Shown: positions 1 through 29,820 of the stretch, in pieces | Numbering within the stretch: the stretch's first letter is position 1 | Layout of the letters: each line of letters starts with the position of its first letter | Origin: Candidatus Saccharimonadota bacterium | Lineage (GTDB): Bacteria > Patescibacteriota > Gracilibacteria > BD1-5 > UBA6164 | Length of the DNA stretch: 32,000 nt | Direction: 5' to 3' | Assembly (NCBI GenBank): GCA_965229705.1 | Contig: OZ245922.1 | Span: forward strand, 360,001 to 392,000 | Made by a program: the position numbers and the translations under genes | Notes under the pieces: generated by a model | Told to the model about the DNA's origin: nothing | Databases searched by the model: none | Seen by the model: the letters and a program-made list of their open reading frames with translations, nothing else

Positions 1-1491
1 TCAGTGATTATCCAAACAGGTTGCGATAACTACTGTACATTTTGTATTGTTCCATACACGCGGTGAGGGGAAATATCTCGTCCAGAAGATGATATAATAA
101 ATGAGTGTCAAGATGCCGTCTCCAATGGAGCAAAAGAGATCACGCTTCTCGGGCAAAATGTCAATTCCTATGGGAAACAAAAAAATAGCAAACTTTGGAA
201 TAGTGAAAAATCGAGATGGAATACTGCTCAAAAAACTCTTAAAATAGGAGTCGATCTTGATGATACTCTCTTTGTTGTACTCAGTGAAGAAGTCATACAA
301 AGCTATAATGCCAAGTATCATAAGATTCTCGAGCTCGATGATGTGCGAACATTTAACTGCAATGGTATACCAGAGCTTATGCAGGAATATCACAACTATG
401 AACAGAGACACCGATGAGATATGTCTCTCCATGAGAATGGAAAAAAGGTATTGCAAAAATTATACGCTGCAGGACACAAAATATATGTGATCACCTCAAG
501 ACCAGCAAAAGAGAGAAAGACTACAGAAGCACTTTTGGAAAAATATTTTTGAAAATGATTTTTTTCTCAGATATGTTTTGTCAGTGAGCTTGGGCATGAT
601 AACAAGTATGAGATTGCCAATACTCTCCAGCTCGATGTGGTTATCGATGATGGACCACATCATATCCGTGCCTATCAAAAAAACTTTTCAGGAAAAATAT
701 GTATATTTACTCAACCATGGAACAAGACTATCTCAGAAGATGGGCAAAAAACCTATAGAGTCAACTGCTGGAATGAGTTTGCTGAAAGGATAGAGAGTTT
801 TCAGTTTTATTCGCCTTTTCGATCTCTCTTAGAAAAAATAGATACTCTACAAGGTCTTGATCGTATACGATTTACTTCCAGCAATCCACATGACATGACG
901 AGAGATATTTTGGATGCTCATAGTGAGCTCTCAAAAACCTGCAATTATCTCCACTTTGCTCTCCAGTCATGAAACAATAAAATGCTCAAAAAAATGAATA
1001 GGCGTCATAGTTATGAAGATTTTCGTGATATGGTAACGTATCTGCGAAAAAAAGATCCTCTCTTTTCTATTTCTACAGATATTATTGTATGATTTAGTGG
1101 AGAAACTGATGAAATGTTTGAGGATACTGTTCGCGCGTTTCGAGAGTGCATGTTTGACTTCTGTTATACAGCGAGGTACTCTGTGAGACCCAATACCCTT
1201 GCAGCAAAAGTTATGCCAGATAATGTTCCTGAGAGTGTCAAAGCTGAGAGGTGGCATATACTCAATGATCTTTTGTTAGAAAATATTTCTCAGAGAAACG
1301 AGCTCATGCTTGGAAGAGTAGAGAAAGTACTGATATCATGAAAAAAAGATGCCGTATTTTTTGGGAGAACACGTAACTTTAAAGAAGTTTTTTTCGAAGC
1401 TCCAGAGAGCTGTAATATCTGAGATTTGGTAGACATAAAAATAACCGATCGTGATAGATATGTACTCAAGGGAAAGTATACAAATACATAA
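1..1491 (+). CDS. miaB: tRNA methylthiotransferase MiaB (radical SAM), 5' end outside window, with a large in-frame insertion
   Basis: Frame +1 is open from base 1 to TAA 1489-1491 when TGA=Gly (8 in-frame TGA). Radical-SAM CDNYCTFC at 22-45. PYTR-G has its Gly encoded by TGA 64-66. Also [35 protein letters not shown] and a C-terminal TRAM-like segment (GRTRNFKEV...DIKITD). Confidence 0.85.
181..804 (+). other. HAD-superfamily (5'-nucleotidase/NT5C-like) domain nested in frame inside miaB
   Basis: About 200 extra residues lie between the MiaB motifs [11 protein letters not shown] and [12 protein letters not shown] motif I is IGVDLDDTL (from 241), motif II is VITSR, motif IV is VVIDDGPHH, followed by FTQPWN. 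No TAA/TAG occurs across either junction. Confidence 0.7.
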
Positions 1492-1497
1492 AATGCT

Positions 1498-1797
1498 ATG
1501 CAAATACCAAAGGAAAAATTTCAAGATCTTCTCCGTTCATGAGAATATATACTCCTGGATGTTCGTACGTTTCATGAGCAGGAAACCCATGGAGTGATAT
1601 CACAAGAACAAATACATATAGATATTATGGAAACTGATGCTTCGGAAAAAATCAAAAATCTTGACCATCAAAAAAAATACCTCATCTATTGCTGGCATGG
1701 CAGGAGAAGTGCGACAACAAGAGAATATATGCAGGCTCATGGTTTTAAGAATGTGTATGATCTCCAGTGAGGAATAGATGCTTGGAAAGAGCTTTAA
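1498..1797 (+). CDS. single-domain rhodanese (sulfurtransferase-like) protein, 99 aa
   Basis: ATG 1498 to TAA 1795-1797, with 2 in-frame TGA. Active-site loop CWHGRRS and C-terminal LQGGIDAW. Starts 7 nt after the miaB stop. Confidence 0.8.
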
Positions 1798-5141: not shown

Positions 5142-6074
5142 CTATCAGGGTAACTCTATACTATAAGGAAAAATCATTTTCTCTTCTTTTGTGATGATTT
5201 CTTTTACAAGGTTTCCGCCATGATTTTTAAGATATTTTAGGGTTTCTTGAACCAGTGAATCTGGAACACTCGCACCAGAAGAGACTCATAATGACTGTAT
5301 GTTTTCTAAAAATCATTTTGGTATTTCTGATGGATGATCAATCAAAAGAGAAGGAATTCACTTCTTTTTTCAGATATCTCTGAGTTTTTGAGAGTTGCTA
5401 GAGTTTTGTGATCATACGATGATAAGAGCATCTATATCTTGCGTTATGGTTTTTACTGCTTCTTGCCTATTTGTTGTCGCGTAGCAGATATCCGTAAAAC
5501 TTGGCAGCTGTATATCTGGATAGAGCTGTTGAACATATTCTATAAGATCCTTGGTATCATCAACGCTCAGAGTTGTCTGGTTGAGAAGCGCGAGTTTTTG
5601 TCATGGGGAGAAGCGGAGCTCCTTAGCATCCTGTTTATTACCAACAACATATATATTTTTGAGATCGTTATCTTGTACTCACAGGGCTTCTTGATGGTTC
5701 TTTTTTCAGATATATATGACTTTGTATCACTCTGAGATAAATTTTTTTGCTTCATTGTGAACTTTTATCACTAAAGGACAGCTGGCATCAAGAGTTCTCA
5801 GTCACTTCTCTTGGGCTCTTTTTACAAAACTTGGCGCTACGCCATGAGCAGAGAAAAGTATAATAGAGTTTGGAGGAATATTTTCTATATCATCAGAAAA
5901 GATAACACCTTTTTTCTGAAAATACTCTACAATAAGTTTGTTATGAACAATCTCATGATTTACATAAATAGGCCCTTCGTCTTTATAGGTCTCTACCACA
6001 TCATCCAGCATTCCTATAGCTCTTTCTACTCAGGCGCAGTATCATCGGGGTGAGGCAAGGTATATATCAAACAT
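5142..6074 (-). CDS. ispH: 4-hydroxy-3-methylbut-2-enyl diphosphate reductase, 310 aa
   Basis: N-terminus MFDIYLASPRGYCAGVERAI, with both Gly as TGA (rc of 6042-6044 and 6030-6032). Also SAHGVAP, DASCPLV, LNQTT, CYATTNRQ and VGSQNSSNS. Stop is TAG (rc of 5142-5144). Confidence 0.9.
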
Positions 6075-6427
6075 TATTTTTTACTGCGAGCATTAAGAAT
6101 ATTGACACAAATTTTTCGAAGTTCTGAAATGTACATGTAAGACCTAAGATATATATATCCATCTAATATTTTTTGGCATTTTCTCAAGACTTGTTTTACT
6201 CAGGCAGTAGTTGATTCAGAGAGATAGTATTCATACTCACTAAGAAAGTTTGTATCATCTGATCAAACTTCTTCAGTGATACTGAGTGCCCGAAGAACAA
6301 TCTTGTGAAAATCATTTTTTTCATCAGGGATTTTCTTTGTATCTTTTTTTCCTCACTGAATAACTCTCAACTGTGGGGGAGATTGTAGAGCCCTGTGAAA
6401 TTCAGAAAAGAGGATTACTTCTCACAT
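6074..6427 (-). CDS. hypothetical protein, 117 aa
   Basis: Open frame with TGA=Gly from ATG (rc of 6425-6427) to TAA (rc of 6074-6076). The stop overlaps the ispH start as TAATG. It starts 7 nt after the adk stop. No family recognised. Confidence 0.5.
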
Positions 6428-6433
6428 AGTTTT

Positions 6434-7045
6434 TTAGAGTCATAATGCATATACAAGATCACGGTGAACGGTATCAATATCTTGATCAGCGTTGATTTTT
6501 ATAAGTTTTCCTTCTTTCTCATACTCTTTGAGCAAAGGAAGAGCGAGGTCTATATATAACTGGATTCTTTTTTCTATCGCGCTTTCTTCATCATCACTGC
6601 GTTTTATGAGTGTTTCTTCAGAGTTTGGATCTCTCAGAGTTCCTTTAGGAAAAGTCTCTCCTGTTCTTGGATTGTACATGCGGCCGAGAAGTCTCTCTTT
6701 TGCTTTTTTTTCATTGAGTTCAAATACCACTACTGTATAGCCTCAGAGAGACATATCAGCGGTTTGCTTATTTCAAAGATTTCTGACGAATCCATCAAAT
6801 ATAGCATGTTCACGATCAAGCTTATTTTTGAGTATATCAAGCATGATTTCCTCTATTATTGAGGGAGAAACATGATTTCCCTCTTCAATAGTAGCTTTGA
6901 CACTTTGTCATAGCTGGCTATCCTCTATTGCAATATTCCTGAGTGCTACTCAAGACTCAAAAAGACGAAAATTATATCTCTGCTCCAAGAGTCGTGCTTG
7001 TGTTCATTTCCCTGATCACTGTATGCCTATAAAAACATAATTCAT
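6434..7045 (-). CDS. adk: adenylate kinase, 203 aa
   Basis: MNYVFIGIQGSGKGTQA P-loop, with two Gly encoded by TGA (rc of 7016-7018 and 7004-7006). Also DGFVRN and RSDDEE. The standard-code ORF ends at TGA 6440-6442; the true stop is TAA (rc of 6434-6436). Confidence 0.9.
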
Positions 7046-7167
7046 ATAACAAAACTCACAAAAAAAATAATCCCCCAAAGTATAGGGAATTATCTTCTTT
7101 TTCAAGAAAAACATTTATTCTTTCTGCCACTTTGTGATATTTTTTCAATCGAAAGGAAAAAATAAAT

Positions 7168-7506
7168 GTATTGAGAGTAATAAGCCGGATTCTGTACTTC
7201 GATATCAATCTATCTGGGACTCATATTGCTATGAGCCTCTAGCTGAGTATTCTGTTTCTAGCCAATAGAGAACAATGAGCTATCACAGAACCATTCCCAT
7301 TGCATCACCAGGGGTTTACCATCCTCTTCAAAGTTTGGAGAGGACCATCAAAATGGCGTTTCACATTACTCGTCTCTGCGGCACTTTCCGTATTTTGAGT
7401 TTATGTATTCTCCTCAAAACCAAAGCCGTTAGCTTTCTGGTTGTTCTCGTGATGTCCGGACTTTCCTCATCTCGTAAAACGAGACGTAGATATCTGCTCT
7501 CAATGA
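7168..7506 (-). ncRNA. rnpB: RNase P RNA (bacterial type A-like)
   Basis: On the minus strand: GAGGAAAGTCCGGAC (rc of 7454-7468) and ACAGAATCCGGCTTA (rc of 7181-7195). P1-like pairing between TTGAGAG near the 5' end (about 7497-7504) and CTCTCAA near the 3' end (about 7170-7178). Locally higher GC than the flanks. End coordinates are approximate. Confidence 0.85.
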
Positions 7507-9140: not shown

Positions 9141-9417
9141 ATTACTTTATTATCACAAAGAAAATAACACATATTATGAGAACTCCATACACAAAGAATA
9201 AGAGCTGATTATTTTTTAACATCTCTCAAAAAATAAAAAATATTTTTTTATAAAAATAGAGTAAACATTTATTGAAGCAATGCAAAAATATATATGTATA
9301 AAAAATATATACAATAAATAGTGTCAAATGTATTTTTCTCTTTGACCAGACACTCATTTTTTATATATTTCTTTTAAAGATTTTGTACTCCCTAAAACTG
9401 TTACTCTAAAAAAACCT

Positions 9418-10848
9418 ATGGAAAAACACTACCGATTAAAAAATATACTTTCGTCTCTTATCCAAGAACTCAAAAAACAAGACTTTCTCGTCTATTTTCG
9501 AAAGATTTCTATCCTCGAAGTCACTCATACAAAAGTTACTTTCTGAACGGTATCAAGCTTTATGAAAGATAATATTGAGGCAAAATTCCAAGATATTATG
9601 CTCTCAGCGACACAAGCAGAGTTTTGAGAAACGATAACAGAGATAGAGTTTGTTATAGATAACTCTATAGACAATCCTTCAAATATTGATGCCATTAGCT
9701 GACCTACATTTTATAAAGAAAATGAAAAAAGTGCAAAACAAGCAGAGAAAAAATCTCGCAGTAGCGTCACTGCTGGAGCAAAGGTTGCAGCCAGTGTTAA
9801 TGCTCGTTATTCTCTCACAAACTTTATCGTGGGCGCAGATAATCAGTTAGCGTTTTCTGCCTGTGAGGCAGTAGCTCGTAATCCAGGAAAATCTTATAAT
9901 CCTCTCTATATTTATGGTGATGTATGACTCGGAAAAACACACCTACTTCAAGCAACAGGGAACGAAATATTGAAAAAATCAAAAGATAAAAAAGTAGCCT
10001 ATACTACTGCTGATAAATTCATTACGGAATATGTTACCGCTGTAAAAAAGAGAAATGTAGAAAAAATGCGAGAAAAGTTTCGTGATATAGATGTGCTGGT
10101 TATAGATGACGTTCAATTTCTTTCACGAAAAGAACAAACACAAAACGAACTCTACAATATCTTTAATATATTGTATGATAGCAATAAGCAAATTATTATC
10201 TCAGGAGATAGAGCTCCAAAAGAACTTACAGAGCTTGAACCACGCCTTAGAAGTCGCTTTGAATGGGGAATAACAGTAGATGTAGGAAAACCTGATTTTG
10301 AAACTCGACTCGCAATTATTCAAGAAAAAGCCAGAGAAAAAGAATTTATGATTCCTCACGAGGTGGCAGAGTTTATTGCAGCAAACGTGACAGAAAATGT
10401 TCGTGAACTTGAAGGAGTGCTCAATCAAATGATTGCAGAATACGAACTCACGGGAAACACTCCAAGTCTCACGCGTATAGCACAAAAACTTCAAAAACTC
10501 AGCTTTACCAAAGATTTACTCTGAGAGTCAAAAACAGCAGAAAAGAGAACCACCACAACCATCAGAAGTTATGAAGATATTATTGATGCAGTAAGCGCGC
10601 ATTTTGGGATTGAAAAAGAGGGAATACTCTGAGAAAATAGAAAAAAAGAGTTTATGATTCCTCGCCAAGTCGGAATGTATCTTCTCAAAACAAAGATGAA
10701 TTATACTTATGAACGCATCGGAAATATCTTTAATGGAAGAAATCATGCCTCAGTACTCTATAGTTGCAACAAGCTTGATAAACTCCTCAAAAAAGACAAA
10801 ACACTTCTCTACGAGGTAAATGCAATCAAAGATGTGATAGGGATATAA
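9418..10848 (+). CDS. dnaA: chromosomal replication initiator DnaA, 476 aa
   Basis: ATG 9418 to TAA 10846-10848. FIVGADNQLA; Walker A GDVGLGKTHLL (first Gly of GLGKT is TGA); Walker B VLVIDDVQFL; sensor RLRSRFEWGI; C-terminal DNA-binding PRQVGMYLLK...NHASVLYSCNK. Confidence 0.95.
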
Positions 10849-20792: not shown

Positions 20793-23462
20793 CTACATAG
20801 CAACTAAGACTCTTCATCGTTCATCTTTTCTGATTTGCAGTTTTAGTTTTAAATGTTCTTCAGCCATATTAGTAAAAATTCAAGACCCCCAGCTTTTGCG
20901 AAGTAACTGTTCAATAACTGGGTGTATATTTCTCCCTAAATTCTGTAAAAAAAGATTAAATCCTTCTGAATCAGGAGTATAGATAACCCACTCTTTTTGT
21001 TGCTGAGTTTTTGAGGAAGTGGGTACAGAAGGTTTTTTTGATGGACTTTGAAAAGTAGGAGTATTTGGCTTAGTTGTAGTAGAAATATCATGAGAAGAAG
21101 GTTTCGTTGATTGAGGAATTTTAGTTTCCTTTGTACTTGGCGTGGATTTGACTGTTGTTGAGGAATCTTTTTTTAGTTGTAAAGAATTATGTGAATCTGG
21201 TGATAGTGTCTTTTTCTTTGCTTGACTTGAAGCAGAGGGTGTAACTCAATTTTTTATAGATTTTTGTGGGGGAGTGGTACTAGATATGGTTTTCTTAGGT
21301 AATCTACCTTCTACTTTTTTTGCCAACATTGCATTTCAAACTTCTTCACCTAATAAATCAATGATACCTTCTTGGATACTATTATAGTTTCTAAGAATAT
21401 AACCCATAGAGTTTTTACCCTGTGATCTCTTCTCAAGAGTGTTTCTATTCCAAAATTGATTTCCTCACAAAGACACAGCAAAATCTTCTAAAAATCTTGT
21501 ATATCTTTCTCTTACTTGGGTATTCTTTGGTTTAAACTTTAACCATAAAGATTGGCCAGCCTCTTCACCTAATAAATCAATAATTCCTTGTTCGATATTA
21601 CCATAATTTTTAATAACGTAACCCATAAAATTTTTACCCTGTGGCTTCGATCTAAGAGTAACAGCACTCCAAACTTCACCCTCATTTAAAGATGCAGCAA
21701 AATCTTCTAAAAATCTTGTGTACTTCTCTCTTACTTGGATAGTTTTTCATTTAAATCTTGACCATAAAACTTGCCCCTTTTTCTCTCCCAATAAGTCAAT
21801 AACTCCTTCTTTTATACTACCAAAATTTCTAAAAATATAAAACACAAAACTCTGACCATGTGGTCTCATTTCAAGAGTGTTTCTATTCCAAAATTGATTT
21901 CCTCACAAAGACACAGCAAAATCTTCTAAAAACTTTGTATATCTTTCTCTTACTTGTATATTCTTCGGTTTAAATTTTAACCATAAAATTTTACCTTTTT
22001 CTTCTCATAACAAGTCAATTATGATCAATCTTAATCGCTGATTTACTGTAACTCATCACTTTCTCTTCACATTATCTCCTACATAACTGAAAAAAGTTTT
22101 TCATTTATCAGTAGCTGAAAGATTACCAGTATGCCAAAGTTCATCCTCTCACAATGATGCAGCAAATTCTTCTAAAAACTCTATATGCCTTTCTCTTACT
22201 TGCTCCTTTTCCGGTTTAAACTTTGACCATAAAATTTTACCTTTTTCCTCTCATAATAAGTCAATTATGATCAACCTTAATTGCTGATTTACTATAATTC
22301 ATCACTTTCTCTTCGTATTATCTCGCACATACTTCAAAAAAGCTTTTCCTCCATTAATAGTTAAAAAACTAGTAATACTCCAAAGCTCATTCTCTCATAG
22401 AGATGCAGCAAATTCTTCTAAAAACCTTATATGTTTTTCTTTTACTTGGATCCTTTCTGGTCTAAACCTTGACCACAAAGCTTGACCAGCTTCTTTACCT
22501 AGTAGGTCAATAATAGCGACTCGTAATCCTTCACTTGGAGTACTATTCTTCTCTCTTTTTCATTTTTCTTTAGCATATCAATAAAAAGATTCTCCCCCCG
22601 GGAATAGCTGGAGCTTCTTAATATTCCAAACTTCACCCTCATTTAAAGATACAGCAAAATCTTGTAAGAGCTTTGTGTATTTCTCTGTAATCTCGGTACT
22701 TTGTGACCTAAATTTTATCCAGAGAGATTGACCTTTTTCTTCACCTAAAAGCCTTTTGATAACAACTTCTAAGCCCCCATTTCTAGAAGCAAAATCACAA
22801 AAAAGCCTTCCTCATGAGCACTCCCTAAGCTTACTAATATTCCAAGTCTTCCATTTTTTCACAAGTTTAGTAAAATTTTCTAAAAAACTTTTATGTCTTT
22901 GAGGAGCTCCTTTATTACTTGGTCTTGCTTTTGCTTTTTTACACCATAATGCTTGTGCTTCTTTTTCTCCAAGTAGTTCGATAATAGCACTCTTCAAATC
23001 AATAGATGCACCTTGTCTTATCTTTTGTGCTATATTCTTATAAAAAGCATAACCTATTGGCGTAGCCCGAAGATCTTCTGTATTCCAATAAGTCCCCTCA
23101 GGAATTGAAGAGGAAAATAACCTAAAAAAAACTTTATAAAGTCTCTGTGTCTCTTCTTCTTGAGAAGTTTGAGACCCAGACAAAATAAGATGCACTTTGT
23201 TACTCGTAGTAGCAACACTTGCCTCCCATAAACCTTTTGCCGTTGGCAGCTCTGCATTAAGATGGCGAAGTAATGCAGTATCTTCTAACACTAGAGTCTT
23301 CTCAAATACCTGCTGACTTGTTGAACGTACAACCTCTAAGATTTTTGATAGCCCAGGCCCCTCTGATAAGAGTACTGCCAATTCTGGTTGAGACTGAATT
23401 GCTTCATGTAAACCTTCCATTATAGCTGAGTTGATATTCCTTTCTTGCCTTTTGAGTCCCAT
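20793..23462 (-). CDS. large tandem-repeat protein of unknown function, 889 aa
   Basis: 2670 nt open with TGA=Gly, from ATG (rc of 23460-23462) to TAG (rc of 20793-20795). At least 7 consecutive 73-82-aa modules have the consensus IIDLLGEEKGQxLWxKFKPxxxQVRERYTxFLEDFAxSLGExxxW...G..F..Y. A Ser/Thr/Pro/Lys-rich linker and a short C-terminal domain follow. No signal peptide seen. Confidence 0.75.
21330..22990 (-). repeat. in-frame coding tandem repeats (periods about 219-246 bp)
   Basis: The IDLLGE-encoding segment recurs. Near-identical blocks include 21434-21549 vs 21872-21987 (offset 438) and about 21967-22079 vs 22213-22325 (offset 246). Confidence 0.8.
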
Positions 23463-27590: not shown

Positions 27591-28322
27591 TTAAAGTTCC
27601 TTTAATGCTCATTTATATGGGAACCCTTCAGGGTAATGAATAGTAGTACCATCACTATCAAGGTATATTTCTTTATTGACTATCATGTTTGTGATTTTCC
27701 ACTGCCACTCATGCTCCACTGCATTAACAGCCCTTCCTACATCTATATCAGACTGGCAATTACTTATATCTACAGGTATTTGGCAAATAATCGGACCTCT
27801 ATCAATTTTATCAGTAACAAAGTGCATTGTTACACAACTTTGGGAAATATTTCAATTTTTGTAGTCTTCCCATACTTTTTTATGAACATTGCCTCCATGC
27901 ATTCAGTTTCACCCATATGGTGCTTGTGTAGGTCAAGGATGAATATTTATTGTTTTTTCTACTGGGAGTCATAACACATATTTGAGCCATCAAGAAAGAA
28001 AGATATACTCTAAGTCATATTCGTGCATAATGCTAATATATATTTCTCGTATTTCTTCTTTTGTATTGTCATCAAACTCTCAGTTTGTGTTTCTCTTTGG
28101 GAAATGTGGAATATGATGAAATCTTAATTTCCCAGGAATGATACCTTGCTCCACTATAAAATCTGAGAATACTTTGTATACTCATCATCTAGCGTGGTTT
28201 GTTATAAGAGTAATATTTTCAATTCCCGTGATTTCTCCTGTTTTTACTTTTTCAAGAATTTTTCTTGCACCACTTCCTCATCAATCTATTGAACCAGAAG
28301 CAAATATTCAAATATTTTTCAT
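27591..28322 (-). CDS. purN: formyltransferase-domain protein (PurN-like phosphoribosylglycinamide formyltransferase), 243 aa
   Basis: IGIFASGS, INIHPGP...YGGNGMHG and MHFVTDKIDRGPIICQ. The standard-code ORF stops at TGA 27609-27611; the true stop is TAA (rc of 27591-27593). Confidence 0.65.
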
Positions 28323-28344
28323 AATAAATAAAATTAAAAATATA

Positions 28345-29796
28345 TTATTTTTTCAGTGTTTTTTTCTGATAACATTTTTGAACTACCATATCAATAATCT
28401 CTCTACTTTGACCTATATATTTATGAGGATCTGTAATTTGAACTATTGTTTCCCTATCAAGACGTGAAGTAATCTCATCACACTCAAGTACAACATCTAC
28501 AAATAGCTTTCCTTGTTCCCAAGCACTTAGAGCCAGTTTTCATGTGAGATCGTGCGCGTATTCTCGAGACATAGGGTTACTCGTTCTGTTTGGGTCTGTC
28601 AGATAGGTCATCACCTGCTGAGATGTTACAACTCAAAAACTCCTCTCTACCCTTTCAGCACTTCTTTCACTGTTTATTTCTAACCAATAGATAGTACCTG
28701 CAAGGTTTCTTATCACATGATCAAGAAACTTAAATCCATCTTCAAAATTGATTCTTGCATTTGCTGACGCAGAAAGATTTCTCGCGTAGGGCATCTCACA
28801 ATTCATCATTGCTGTTACAAGATTTCATGAAAAATAATTTCTCAATGACATAGTTTGTTCCTCTGTAGTAGGATTTCCATTTTTTGCATCCTTATGAGGC
28901 ATAGCAGAAGAACCTTTCTTTCTATGAGGGTTTCCATTTATAAACACATTTACATCATCACTCCTTCCATTTGCAATAAACCTTGCAATATTATTGAGTG
29001 TTTCTGTAAGTCTCGCCATAGCAAAGAAAATATCAGCTTCAAATTCTAAACCAGGTATTTGACCTGCAGCATCCATATATCAGACCTGGAGTTTTGATGC
29101 AAGATTTTTTTGAAGTTCCTGTCAATCAATTCATAGAGCCGTTGCAGAATGATGATTTCCCGTCGCATCTCCCCATTTAGCCTTCAAAGAATTCTGGTAA
29201 ACAAAGTGTATGATATCTAAGTTTGACTGAAGCATCTCAACATAGTGTACCAGTGGTCTCCCTGCTGTTGTTGGAAGAGCATCATATAAGTGAGAAGTAT
29301 CCATAAACGCTATATCTCTCCATAAGACTGCTTTTTCACAAAGTATGTCTCTTACATTTTCTGTAACTCTTGCGATAATCTCAAGAGATGATTTGAACTG
29401 TAATGCTCTTACAGGTTGAGTAGTATCAGCGCTAGTTTTTGCTTTGTTAATATGTGTTTGAGCATCCTCTGATACTTTTTCTGCAAGAGCTCTATTAATT
29501 GCTATAACATCATGTCATGTTTGCTCTTCGATTTCTCTTACTCTTTCAAGATCTACTTGACCACTTGTAGCTACCCTGTAGATTTCATCTGCCAAATAAG
29601 GAGGAACAATGTTTGGATAGAGATCAGAGAGCACTTGTGCAGAGAGACCTTGAACCTTGAGTGAAAGCCCTATAGTCTTTTTTGCTCACCAAATATCAAT
29701 CATATCTGATGTTCCATACCTTCCTGCAGCAAGATCAGCTGTATCTGGTCTTTCTCACTCTGGAAAGCAAGAAAGTGGTAGTGTTTGTCAAAACAT
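28345..29796 (-). CDS. purB: adenylosuccinate lyase, 483 aa
   Basis: Signature GSSAMPHKDAKNGNP, TSHLYDALPTT, and fumarate-lyase-family N- and C-terminal regions. Stop is TAA (rc of 28345-28347). Confidence 0.9.
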
Positions 29797-29820
29797 AATA
29801 CTAGTATGTTAAAAAATATA

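Follow-up and report, generated by a model that had tools for sequence, protein, structure and literature searches.

The 32,000-nucleotide stretch of DNA analysed here (the window; positions 360,001 to 392,000 of contig OZ245922.1, assembly GCA_965229705.1, from a bacterium filed as Candidatus Saccharimonadota and placed by GTDB among the Gracilibacteria) opens with the 3' part of a gene for a MiaB-type radical-S-adenosylmethionine (radical-SAM) methylthiotransferase. Nested in frame within the catalytic core of this enzyme is a complete phosphatase domain of the NT5C type, belonging to the haloacid dehalogenase (HAD) enzymes. We read the product as a genuine, inherited domain-in-domain protein, in which a MiaB-type enzyme and an NT5C-type phosphatase, each self-sufficient, are tethered or co-expressed; we put the probability of this reading at about 0.6. 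Each part, to judge from its sequence, is most likely an active enzyme.

The gene occupies nt 1-1491 (496 codons plus stop; forward strand, as for all of its features given below), and frame 1 is open from nt 1 to a TAA at 1489-1491 solely when TGA is decoded as an amino acid, as in genetic code 25. Eight TGA codons lie in the frame of host and insert, three of them within the insert, and they coincide with glycine positions of relatives. The N-terminal 175 codons, which carry the UPF0004 domain, lie 5' of the window start and are represented in P0002, a full-length copy of the protein (671 aa, from a 1,006,762-bp contig in NCBI/ENA) whose sole differences from the window protein are W for G at the eight TGA codons. 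UPF0004 (PF00919) is listed for P0002, which has the three conserved cysteines of the auxiliary cluster at Cys11, Cys47 and Cys78. Within the window, the cysteines of the radical-SAM cluster motif CDNYCTFC (CxxxCxxC; 22-45) are invariant in the host alignment, as is LLGQNVN (145-165), the GGE-like SAM-binding motif on strand β2. This strand and the Gracilibacteria-specific hairpin that follows it (together 145-222; strands at residues 221-225, 241-242 and 247-248 in the P0002 model) are common to insert-bearing and insert-less relatives. Beyond the insert, the rest of the radical-SAM core, with helix α2 and the β3 motif RIRFTSSNP (862-888), extends over 811-1305 as placed by Pfam and NCBIfam, and a TRAM RNA-binding domain completes the protein at 1306-1476 (PF01938, E = 9.5e-7, fragment residues 436-492).

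Profile searches recover both partners in this nested order: Pfam breaks the Radical_SAM match into two stretches and places NT5C between them. The window fragment scores 298 bits against TIGR00089 (MiaB/RimO; cutoff 251), a score that rises to 397 bits after in-silico removal of the insert. The NCBIfam ranking of the insert-free form is headed by MiaB (351.5 bits), followed by MtaB (278) and RimO (217), and the host is accordingly described here as MiaB-like. Structure prediction and the search of representatives were run on two database copies, P0002 (in which TGA is read as W) and P0010. For the full-length protein, AlphaFold gives a predicted local distance difference test score (pLDDT) of 87.9 and a predicted template modelling score (pTM) of 0.81, with pLDDT 95-98 across the insert, and the host part of this model superposes on MiaB structures 7MJZ and 7MJV with a template modelling (TM) score of 0.83.

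The insert is located between radical-SAM β2 with its hairpin and helix α2 (SPFRSLL), a site corresponding to approximately residues 224-231 of Bacteroides uniformis MiaB (7MJV). In insert-less Gracilibacteria MiaBs, of which L002, L003 and L004 on genome contigs and a larger alignment were compared, five residues fill this site, which reads WN-xGxGK-SPFR; insert-bearing proteins follow the pattern WN-N/T-x-x-x-K/T-[LKIGIDLDD ... LLPKLSFT]-SPFR. Because the insert-less form has this sequence, we delimited a five-residue linker, TAQKT, at 223-237 (position-equivalent to xGxGK) and a complete HAD domain of 191 aa, ending ...ESFQFY, at 238-810, as recognised by PF06941, by family profiles and in the structural model. 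Stand-alone homologues begin M-[PK]-K-I-[GA]-I-D-x-D-D and terminate at the same point as the insert, and an exhaustive search of representatives aligned insert residues 5-189 with residues 1-190 of stand-alone proteins of ~190 aa; the insert therefore corresponds to an entire HAD gene product. Its three TGA (Gly) codons (415-417, 550-552 and 556-558) belong to the code-25 frame, and the one at 550-552 encodes the family-conserved Gly of YFGxxFF. GC content is 36.6% in the insert and 37.2% in the host, in a window of ~34%. Since TGA-Gly codons lie inside it and its GC content is that of the host, the insert is evidently translated under code 25 and has long been resident. Four insert-less proteins (P0076, P0099, P0106 and P0083) have unrelated expansions of 19-24 residues at the very loop of nt 223-237. 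Sequence comparison suggests that this loop of MiaB is an insertion-tolerant hotspot.

The insert matches NT5C (PF06941) with E = 7.6e-11 and 42.6-43.9 bits (cutoff 24.8) over fragment residues 82-262, and all four HAD motifs occur in the expected order (DxDx[TV]; [ST]; K; DD). Motif I, DLDDT (253-267), supplies the predicted nucleophile Asp85 and acid/base Asp87 (fragment numbering), both kept in 64 of 64 aligned insert-bearing clusters. Motif II is VITSR (487-501), whose Thr165 and Ser166 are each retained in 64 of 65 clusters and whose Arg167 is retained in all 65; the motif III lysine, Lys202 (604-606), is likewise present in 65 of 65. Motif IV forms part of the subfamily signature VIDDGPHH (640-663), which includes the Mg2+-binding Asp pair: Asp216 is D in 57 clusters and E in 8, Asp217 is found in all 65, and the two histidines are nearly as constant (His220 in 64 of 65, His221 in 63 of 65). 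The NT5C-family motif QPWN (712-723; Trp240 in 63 and Asn241 in all 65 clusters) lines up in a profile alignment with the SHN/CHN motif of the Staphylococcus epidermidis enzyme 3BWV and of human mitochondrial deoxyribonucleotidase (mdN).

Modelled alone, the insert reaches pLDDT 97.3 and pTM 0.92, and the top Foldseek matches are 3BWV (TM 0.79) and mdN (4L6A; TM 0.72). A family profile likewise finds 3BWV (E = 5e-19) and mdN (E = 3e-13) in the PDB, a database in which the insert as a single sequence had no match. The predicted fold comprises a Rossmann-like core and a helical cap, as in mdN and its cytosolic counterpart cdN. Such a cap in HAD enzymes generally excludes macromolecular substrates. 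Other fusion partners of the wider HAD family are a deoxynucleoside monophosphate kinase and an HD phosphohydrolase, and these fusions point to a probable role in nucleotide metabolism.

A search with the whole 496-aa fragment returned at least 65 clusters (90% identity level; proteins of 650-697 aa) that carry a ~196-aa insert at the identical site and span the entire query at 46-98% identity. The named insert-bearing records are Candidatus Gracilibacteria (e.g., MCH8518218.1, NDK09685.1, NUJ97583.1 and NRH20518.1), and two metagenome contigs, L005 and L006, each have an unbroken frame for a protein of this architecture, with 68% identity over its whole length. The junctions are common to independent assemblies from NCBI, JGI, ENA and Logan. 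Because at least 65 independent assemblies have identical junctions, a misassembly is excluded, and from the sequences compared we likewise exclude an intervening element and the recent arrival of foreign DNA. The notion that the segment is an assembly chimera or a removable element such as an intein or intron, for which nothing besides the unusual length speaks, thus retains practically no credence: the independent assemblies agree, and intein, intron and repeat features are missing. Specifically, the junctions WN|TAQKT and FQFY|SPFR do not have the Cys/Ser ... His-Asn signature of an intein, and Pfam detected no Hint or endonuclease domain. No Rfam intron family matched, the sole hit in nt 1-2000 being a sub-threshold chance match to a snoRNA. 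We found no target-site duplication and no flanking direct or terminal repeats around the insert, and a viral contig scan gave no match.

An earlier note on this DNA, made from the letters alone, had proposed an in-frame HAD domain inside the radical-SAM core of an intact MiaB. Pfam order, structural model and motifs concur on this point: DLDDT, VITSR, IDDGPHH, QPWN, LLGQNVN and RIRFT all occur where it had placed them, and the frame is open through both junctions under code 25. The likeness to 5'(3')-deoxyribonucleotidases that it drew from the motifs is borne out by the above-cutoff NT5C match and by 3BWV and mdN as best structural matches. Its extent for the domain (181-804) was about right, although the start lay ~50 nt too early. 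The normal spacing from LLGQNVN to RIRFT, which it took to be roughly 20 residues, is 26 in B. uniformis MiaB and 39 in insert-less Gracilibacteria; its estimate of about 200 extra residues is close to the ~191-196 found. The checks that it suggested came out in its favour. HAD/NT5C, Radical_SAM and TRAM models all match, the insert folds as an autonomous excursion from a MiaB-like host, code-25 relatives with long spacing all carry the HAD motifs (the others have five residues at the site), and the misassembly it had wished to exclude is ruled out by the shared junctions.

Among the matches listed, no insert-bearing and insert-less pair could be assigned to one contig, so two paralogues per genome found no support there, and the 1.0-Mb source contig is represented by a single MiaB-like protein among the top matches listed. 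In one metagenome-assembled genome, RXS1_metabat.bin.34, two distinct insert-less MiaB genes occur, L002 (JANJUN010000065.1) and L004 (JANJUN010000044.1); either the bin mixes strains or the gene has been duplicated. JGI automatic annotation already labels one insert-bearing protein 'MiaB/5'(3')-deoxyribonucleotidase', and the NCBI name for nested proteins is merely 'radical SAM protein'. Public protein sets read TGA in these genes as Trp (code 4) or as stop (code 11), and the outcome is W-for-G errors and fragments (P0001, P0002, P0006 and many other entries).

Insert and host have diverged in step. The correlation of their divergences (r = 0.76) matches that between two host domains (0.77), and the insert therefore travels with its host gene; it also evolves faster, with a mean pairwise identity of 47.5% compared with 60-74% for host domains. 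A single monophyletic origin is not visible on the host tree: the insert/no-insert split appears in 0 bootstrap replicates, and all 100 of 100 neighbour-joining bootstraps need 6-11 gains or losses of the insert. An independent 1-aa host indel (KQ-KN vs KQFVD) cuts across insert-bearing and insert-less states, and no host column tracks the presence of the insert (maximum normalised mutual information, 0.49). In the HAD tree, the stand-alone genes P0124, P0125 and P0126 nest among the MiaB inserts, and stops flank each of these genes on both sides, marking them as truly free-standing. On the simplest account, the HAD was inserted in frame once, long ago, and several events of loss, fission or allelic replacement came later.

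The locus of one relative, L001 (10001-11828), differs in that a 167-nt deletion within the insert removes the cap and motif II, and a frameshift is present as well. The gene is split into two overlapping open reading frames (ORFs), the second of which starts at GTG 10869, and the C-terminal MiaB half is intact (320 codons, 69% identity, no stops). Either L001 encodes a naturally split enzyme, or its decay is very recent. That this locus can decay, as its deletion and frameshift demonstrate, is the observation in favour of regarding the window gene as a MiaB inactivated by insertion of a foreign gene, that is, as a pseudogene or a gene in decay. We hold this to be very improbable, given that in the window, as in at least 64 further clusters, no stop interrupts the frame across either junction, that the cluster and SAM motifs of MiaB are intact in host domains with 60-74% pairwise identity, and that only one MiaB-like protein was found for the source contig among the top matches listed. 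The same deletion, which took motif II and spared the MiaB half, could also be cited for a HAD domain co-opted as a non-catalytic module that provides a tRNA- or nucleotide-binding surface or a scaffold for the barrel, and the archaeal Elp3 fragments described below, which end just past their HAD, suggest a role at split points. This idea too appears improbable: the four HAD motifs are near-invariant across 46-98% identity, which is not expected of a pseudo-enzyme, and the helical cap is retained as in small-molecule nucleotidases.

According to the reading we prefer, the host chain leaves the radical-SAM barrel after β2 and its hairpin, forms the capped HAD domain and returns as α2. For the MiaB part, the predicted reaction is methylthiolation of tRNA at A37; for the HAD part, it is hydrolysis of a small phosphomonoester (most probably of a nucleoside 5'(3')-monophosphate) by way of a phospho-enzyme intermediate on Asp85, with Asp87 acting as acid/base and Mg2+ bound by Asp216 and Asp217. 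We infer these two activities, the substrate and any functional link between the parts. The protein would have originated when a whole stand-alone HAD gene was inserted in frame into a permissive surface loop, and the insert would since have been co-inherited with the host gene, subject to several later losses or fissions. Sister lineages have MiaBs that lack the insert as well as HADs that stand alone. Because MiaB occurs without the insert, the HAD occurs as a free gene and no host residues co-vary with the insert, we assume by default that two enzymes, each self-sufficient and with an active site of its own, are tethered or co-expressed.

HADs of the same subfamily are also nested in the radical-SAM core of archaeal Elp3, at two positions. 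In P0270, P0310 and P0335 the HAD follows Elp3 residue ~185, and Elp3 residues 190-227 resume past it (alignment score 83, compared with a shuffle maximum of 54); in P0247 and P0271 it follows residue ~227. The HADs of P0270 and P0310 are 32-40% identical to MiaB inserts (E = 1e-33 to 1e-39), and a group that unites them with the MiaB inserts, and admits at most six of ~80 stand-alone proteins, appears in 70 of 100 bootstraps. Eleven proteins of 423-425 aa make up the P0270 cluster, and the contigs that encode them reach 948 kb; with so many like-sized members on contigs of this length, the C-terminal end point of P0270 is real. The HAD-bearing Elp3 loci are L091 (5001-7312), L092 (4001-5278) and L093 (563-1825), in a DPANN-like archaeal context (EF-1alpha, S10, CDC48). 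The nested Elp3 proteins stop near residue 227, leaving Elp3 split or truncated: at L091 the rest of Elp3 is encoded at 6281-7309 in another frame, and at L092 it does not follow. From the sequences, the recurrence of this HAD in Elp3 appears hard to dismiss.

These nestings bear on whether the two activities of the MiaB fusion are functionally coupled. On this alternative, the DDxPHH...PWN HAD clade, nested independently in MiaB (in Gracilibacteria of the candidate phyla radiation) and in Elp3 (in DPANN-like archaea), would be a meaningful and dedicated partner of radical-SAM enzymes that modify the tRNA anticodon loop. The HAD might dispose of a nucleotide that is inhibitory or hazardous, for example modified nucleoside monophosphates released in tRNA turnover, or might act on another phosphorylated metabolite tied to iron-sulfur (Fe-S), SAM or sulfur chemistry, with nesting keeping it at the enzyme. 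We entertain such coupling tentatively, as somewhat unlikely. Nesting at two sites in Elp3, the resemblance and grouping of the P0270 and P0310 HADs with the MiaB inserts, and the invariance of the HAD catalytic residues all speak for it, as does the setting of the nearest stand-alone homologue. That homologue, P0124 (191 aa, 36% identity to the insert), is encoded at L085 4386-6576, on a code-25 contig, directly after genes for a sufS-like cysteine desulfurase and a sufU/nifU-like scaffold, across a 1-nt gap. The linkage was considered as a general pattern and set aside, having been seen in one organism only.

A further observation in favour of coupling is the single-domain rhodanese gene 7 nt downstream of the MiaB stop (1498-1797, forward strand; PF00581, E = 2e-16). 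A rhodanese gene also follows in L001 and L005, that is, behind the MiaB gene at three of four insert-bearing loci, and is not found in L006 or in the insert-less L002-L004. Its product may be a sulfur-relay partner or donor for the methylthiotransferase, and would in that case belong to the system. Against coupling stands, first, that to our knowledge no phosphorylated small-molecule substrate or product is common to MiaB and Elp3. Insertion points also differ, lying between β2 and α2 in MiaB and after α2 but before β3 in Elp3, a difference in topology that speaks against a shared geometry at the active site. In many sister lineages MiaB occurs and the HAD does not, and for most of these the search revealed no close stand-alone homologue; the sufS-sufU neighbourhood was seen in that one organism; and the fusions of the wider family fit ordinary nucleotide metabolism.

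We therefore return to two self-sufficient enzymes on one inherited chain as the preferred reading, against which a number of points nonetheless weigh. The enzymatic activity of both parts rests on sequence and structural model. With its insert removed, the host scores 351.5 bits against the MiaB equivalog TIGR01574, whose cutoff is 355.3, and because this cutoff is narrowly missed, both i6A (N6-isopentenyladenosine) and t6A (N6-threonylcarbamoyladenosine) are candidates for the tRNA target. The pTM of 0.81 hints at a fixed packing between the domains in the model. Repeated clean presence and absence, with 6-11 changes, is awkward for vertical descent with loss, and all insert-less forms share xGxGK, which simple deletion leaves unexplained. 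Lastly, the nesting in Elp3 and the sufS-sufU neighbours of P0124 argue in favour of a real partnership over mere tethering.

Other genes of the window offer some context. An IspH/LytB gene is located at 5142-6074 (reverse strand); IspH supplies dimethylallyl diphosphate, from which i6A receives its prenyl group. Within the 32-kb window no gene for MiaA was seen. The purine genes purN and purB lie at 27591-29808 (reverse strand), and since these and IspH/LytB are present, the genome is not wholly salvage-dependent. An insertion-sequence-type transposase (rve/rve_3 integrase core, with in-frame TGA) at 1935-2732 separates the rhodanese gene from a UPF0020 methyltransferase gene and is missing from the otherwise syntenic locus L001. 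dnaA is found at 9328-10848 (forward strand), with adk, a TrmA-like methyltransferase gene, groEL and thrS nearby in an order common to L001; the window probably adjoins the replication origin. An 889-aa ORF at 20793-23462 (reverse strand) has no Pfam match and consists of about eight tandem ~70-aa units (...IIDLLGEEKGKILWSKFKPE..VRERYTRFLEDFA.SLG...) followed by a Ser/Thr/Pro/Lys-rich tail.

The nested protein can be set beside several known systems. Like canonical MiaB (B. uniformis 7MJV/7MJZ), on which its host part superposes with a TM score of 0.83, it combines UPF0004, radical-SAM and TRAM domains with CxxxCxxC and GQNVN motifs; unlike it, the window protein has a 191-aa HAD in place of a short loop, and its equivalog score falls just below the cutoff. 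The insert shares PF06941, the motifs, the cap and the fold (TM 0.72-0.79) with the NT5C nucleotidases (human mdN and cdN 1MH9, 4L6A and 2I7D; S. epidermidis 3BWV), from which it differs in being only ~18% identical, in its DDxPHH signature, in an additional stretch that precedes the motif III Lys and in being nested. The stand-alone HADs P0124, P0125 and P0126 of code-25 bacteria align end to end with the inserts at 30-51% identity, but each is a gene in its own right, with a start and a stop codon. The archaeal Elp3-HAD proteins resemble the window protein in having the HAD in the second β/α unit of a radical-SAM core, in acting on the anticodon loop and in belonging to a small-genome lineage; their host, however, modifies U34 (cm5, 5-carboxymethyl) and has a GNAT domain, and they are archaeal, with two other insertion points. 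Acinetobacter MtlD, a mannitol-1-phosphate dehydrogenase/phosphatase (7OCN) retrieved by Foldseek, likewise joins a HAD and a second enzyme on one polypeptide, but the two are in tandem and serve one pathway, whereas the window HAD is nested in a catalytic domain with which it has no common pathway known.

In the literature searched on MiaB, Elp3 and radical-SAM insertions, we found no description of a phosphatase nested in a radical-SAM barrel. As far as we found, then, the nested arrangement is new and the families of both parts, MiaB-type methylthiotransferases and NT5C-type HADs, are known. The earlier note had called the architecture unfamiliar, which agrees with this search, although it is widespread in Gracilibacteria and not peculiar to one genome. 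It had further supposed that the fusion couples a phosphatase to a thiomethylase; the physical fusion is plain, and a mechanistic coupling of the activities is not shown.

The radical-SAM β2-α2 loop accommodates an enzyme of 190 residues, a fact relevant both to enzyme engineering and to annotation. Nested, stand-alone, absent and split states among close relatives amount to a natural experiment, and the system is suited to the study of how domain insertions originate, persist and are lost in the streamlined genomes of episymbionts. The occurrence of the HAD clade in archaeal Elp3 raises the possibility that a phosphatase function goes with tRNA modification. If the coupling were true, radical-SAM tRNA modification would be associated with a phosphatase step that has escaped notice; this step might serve to remove modified or inhibitory nucleotides or to regulate the enzyme.

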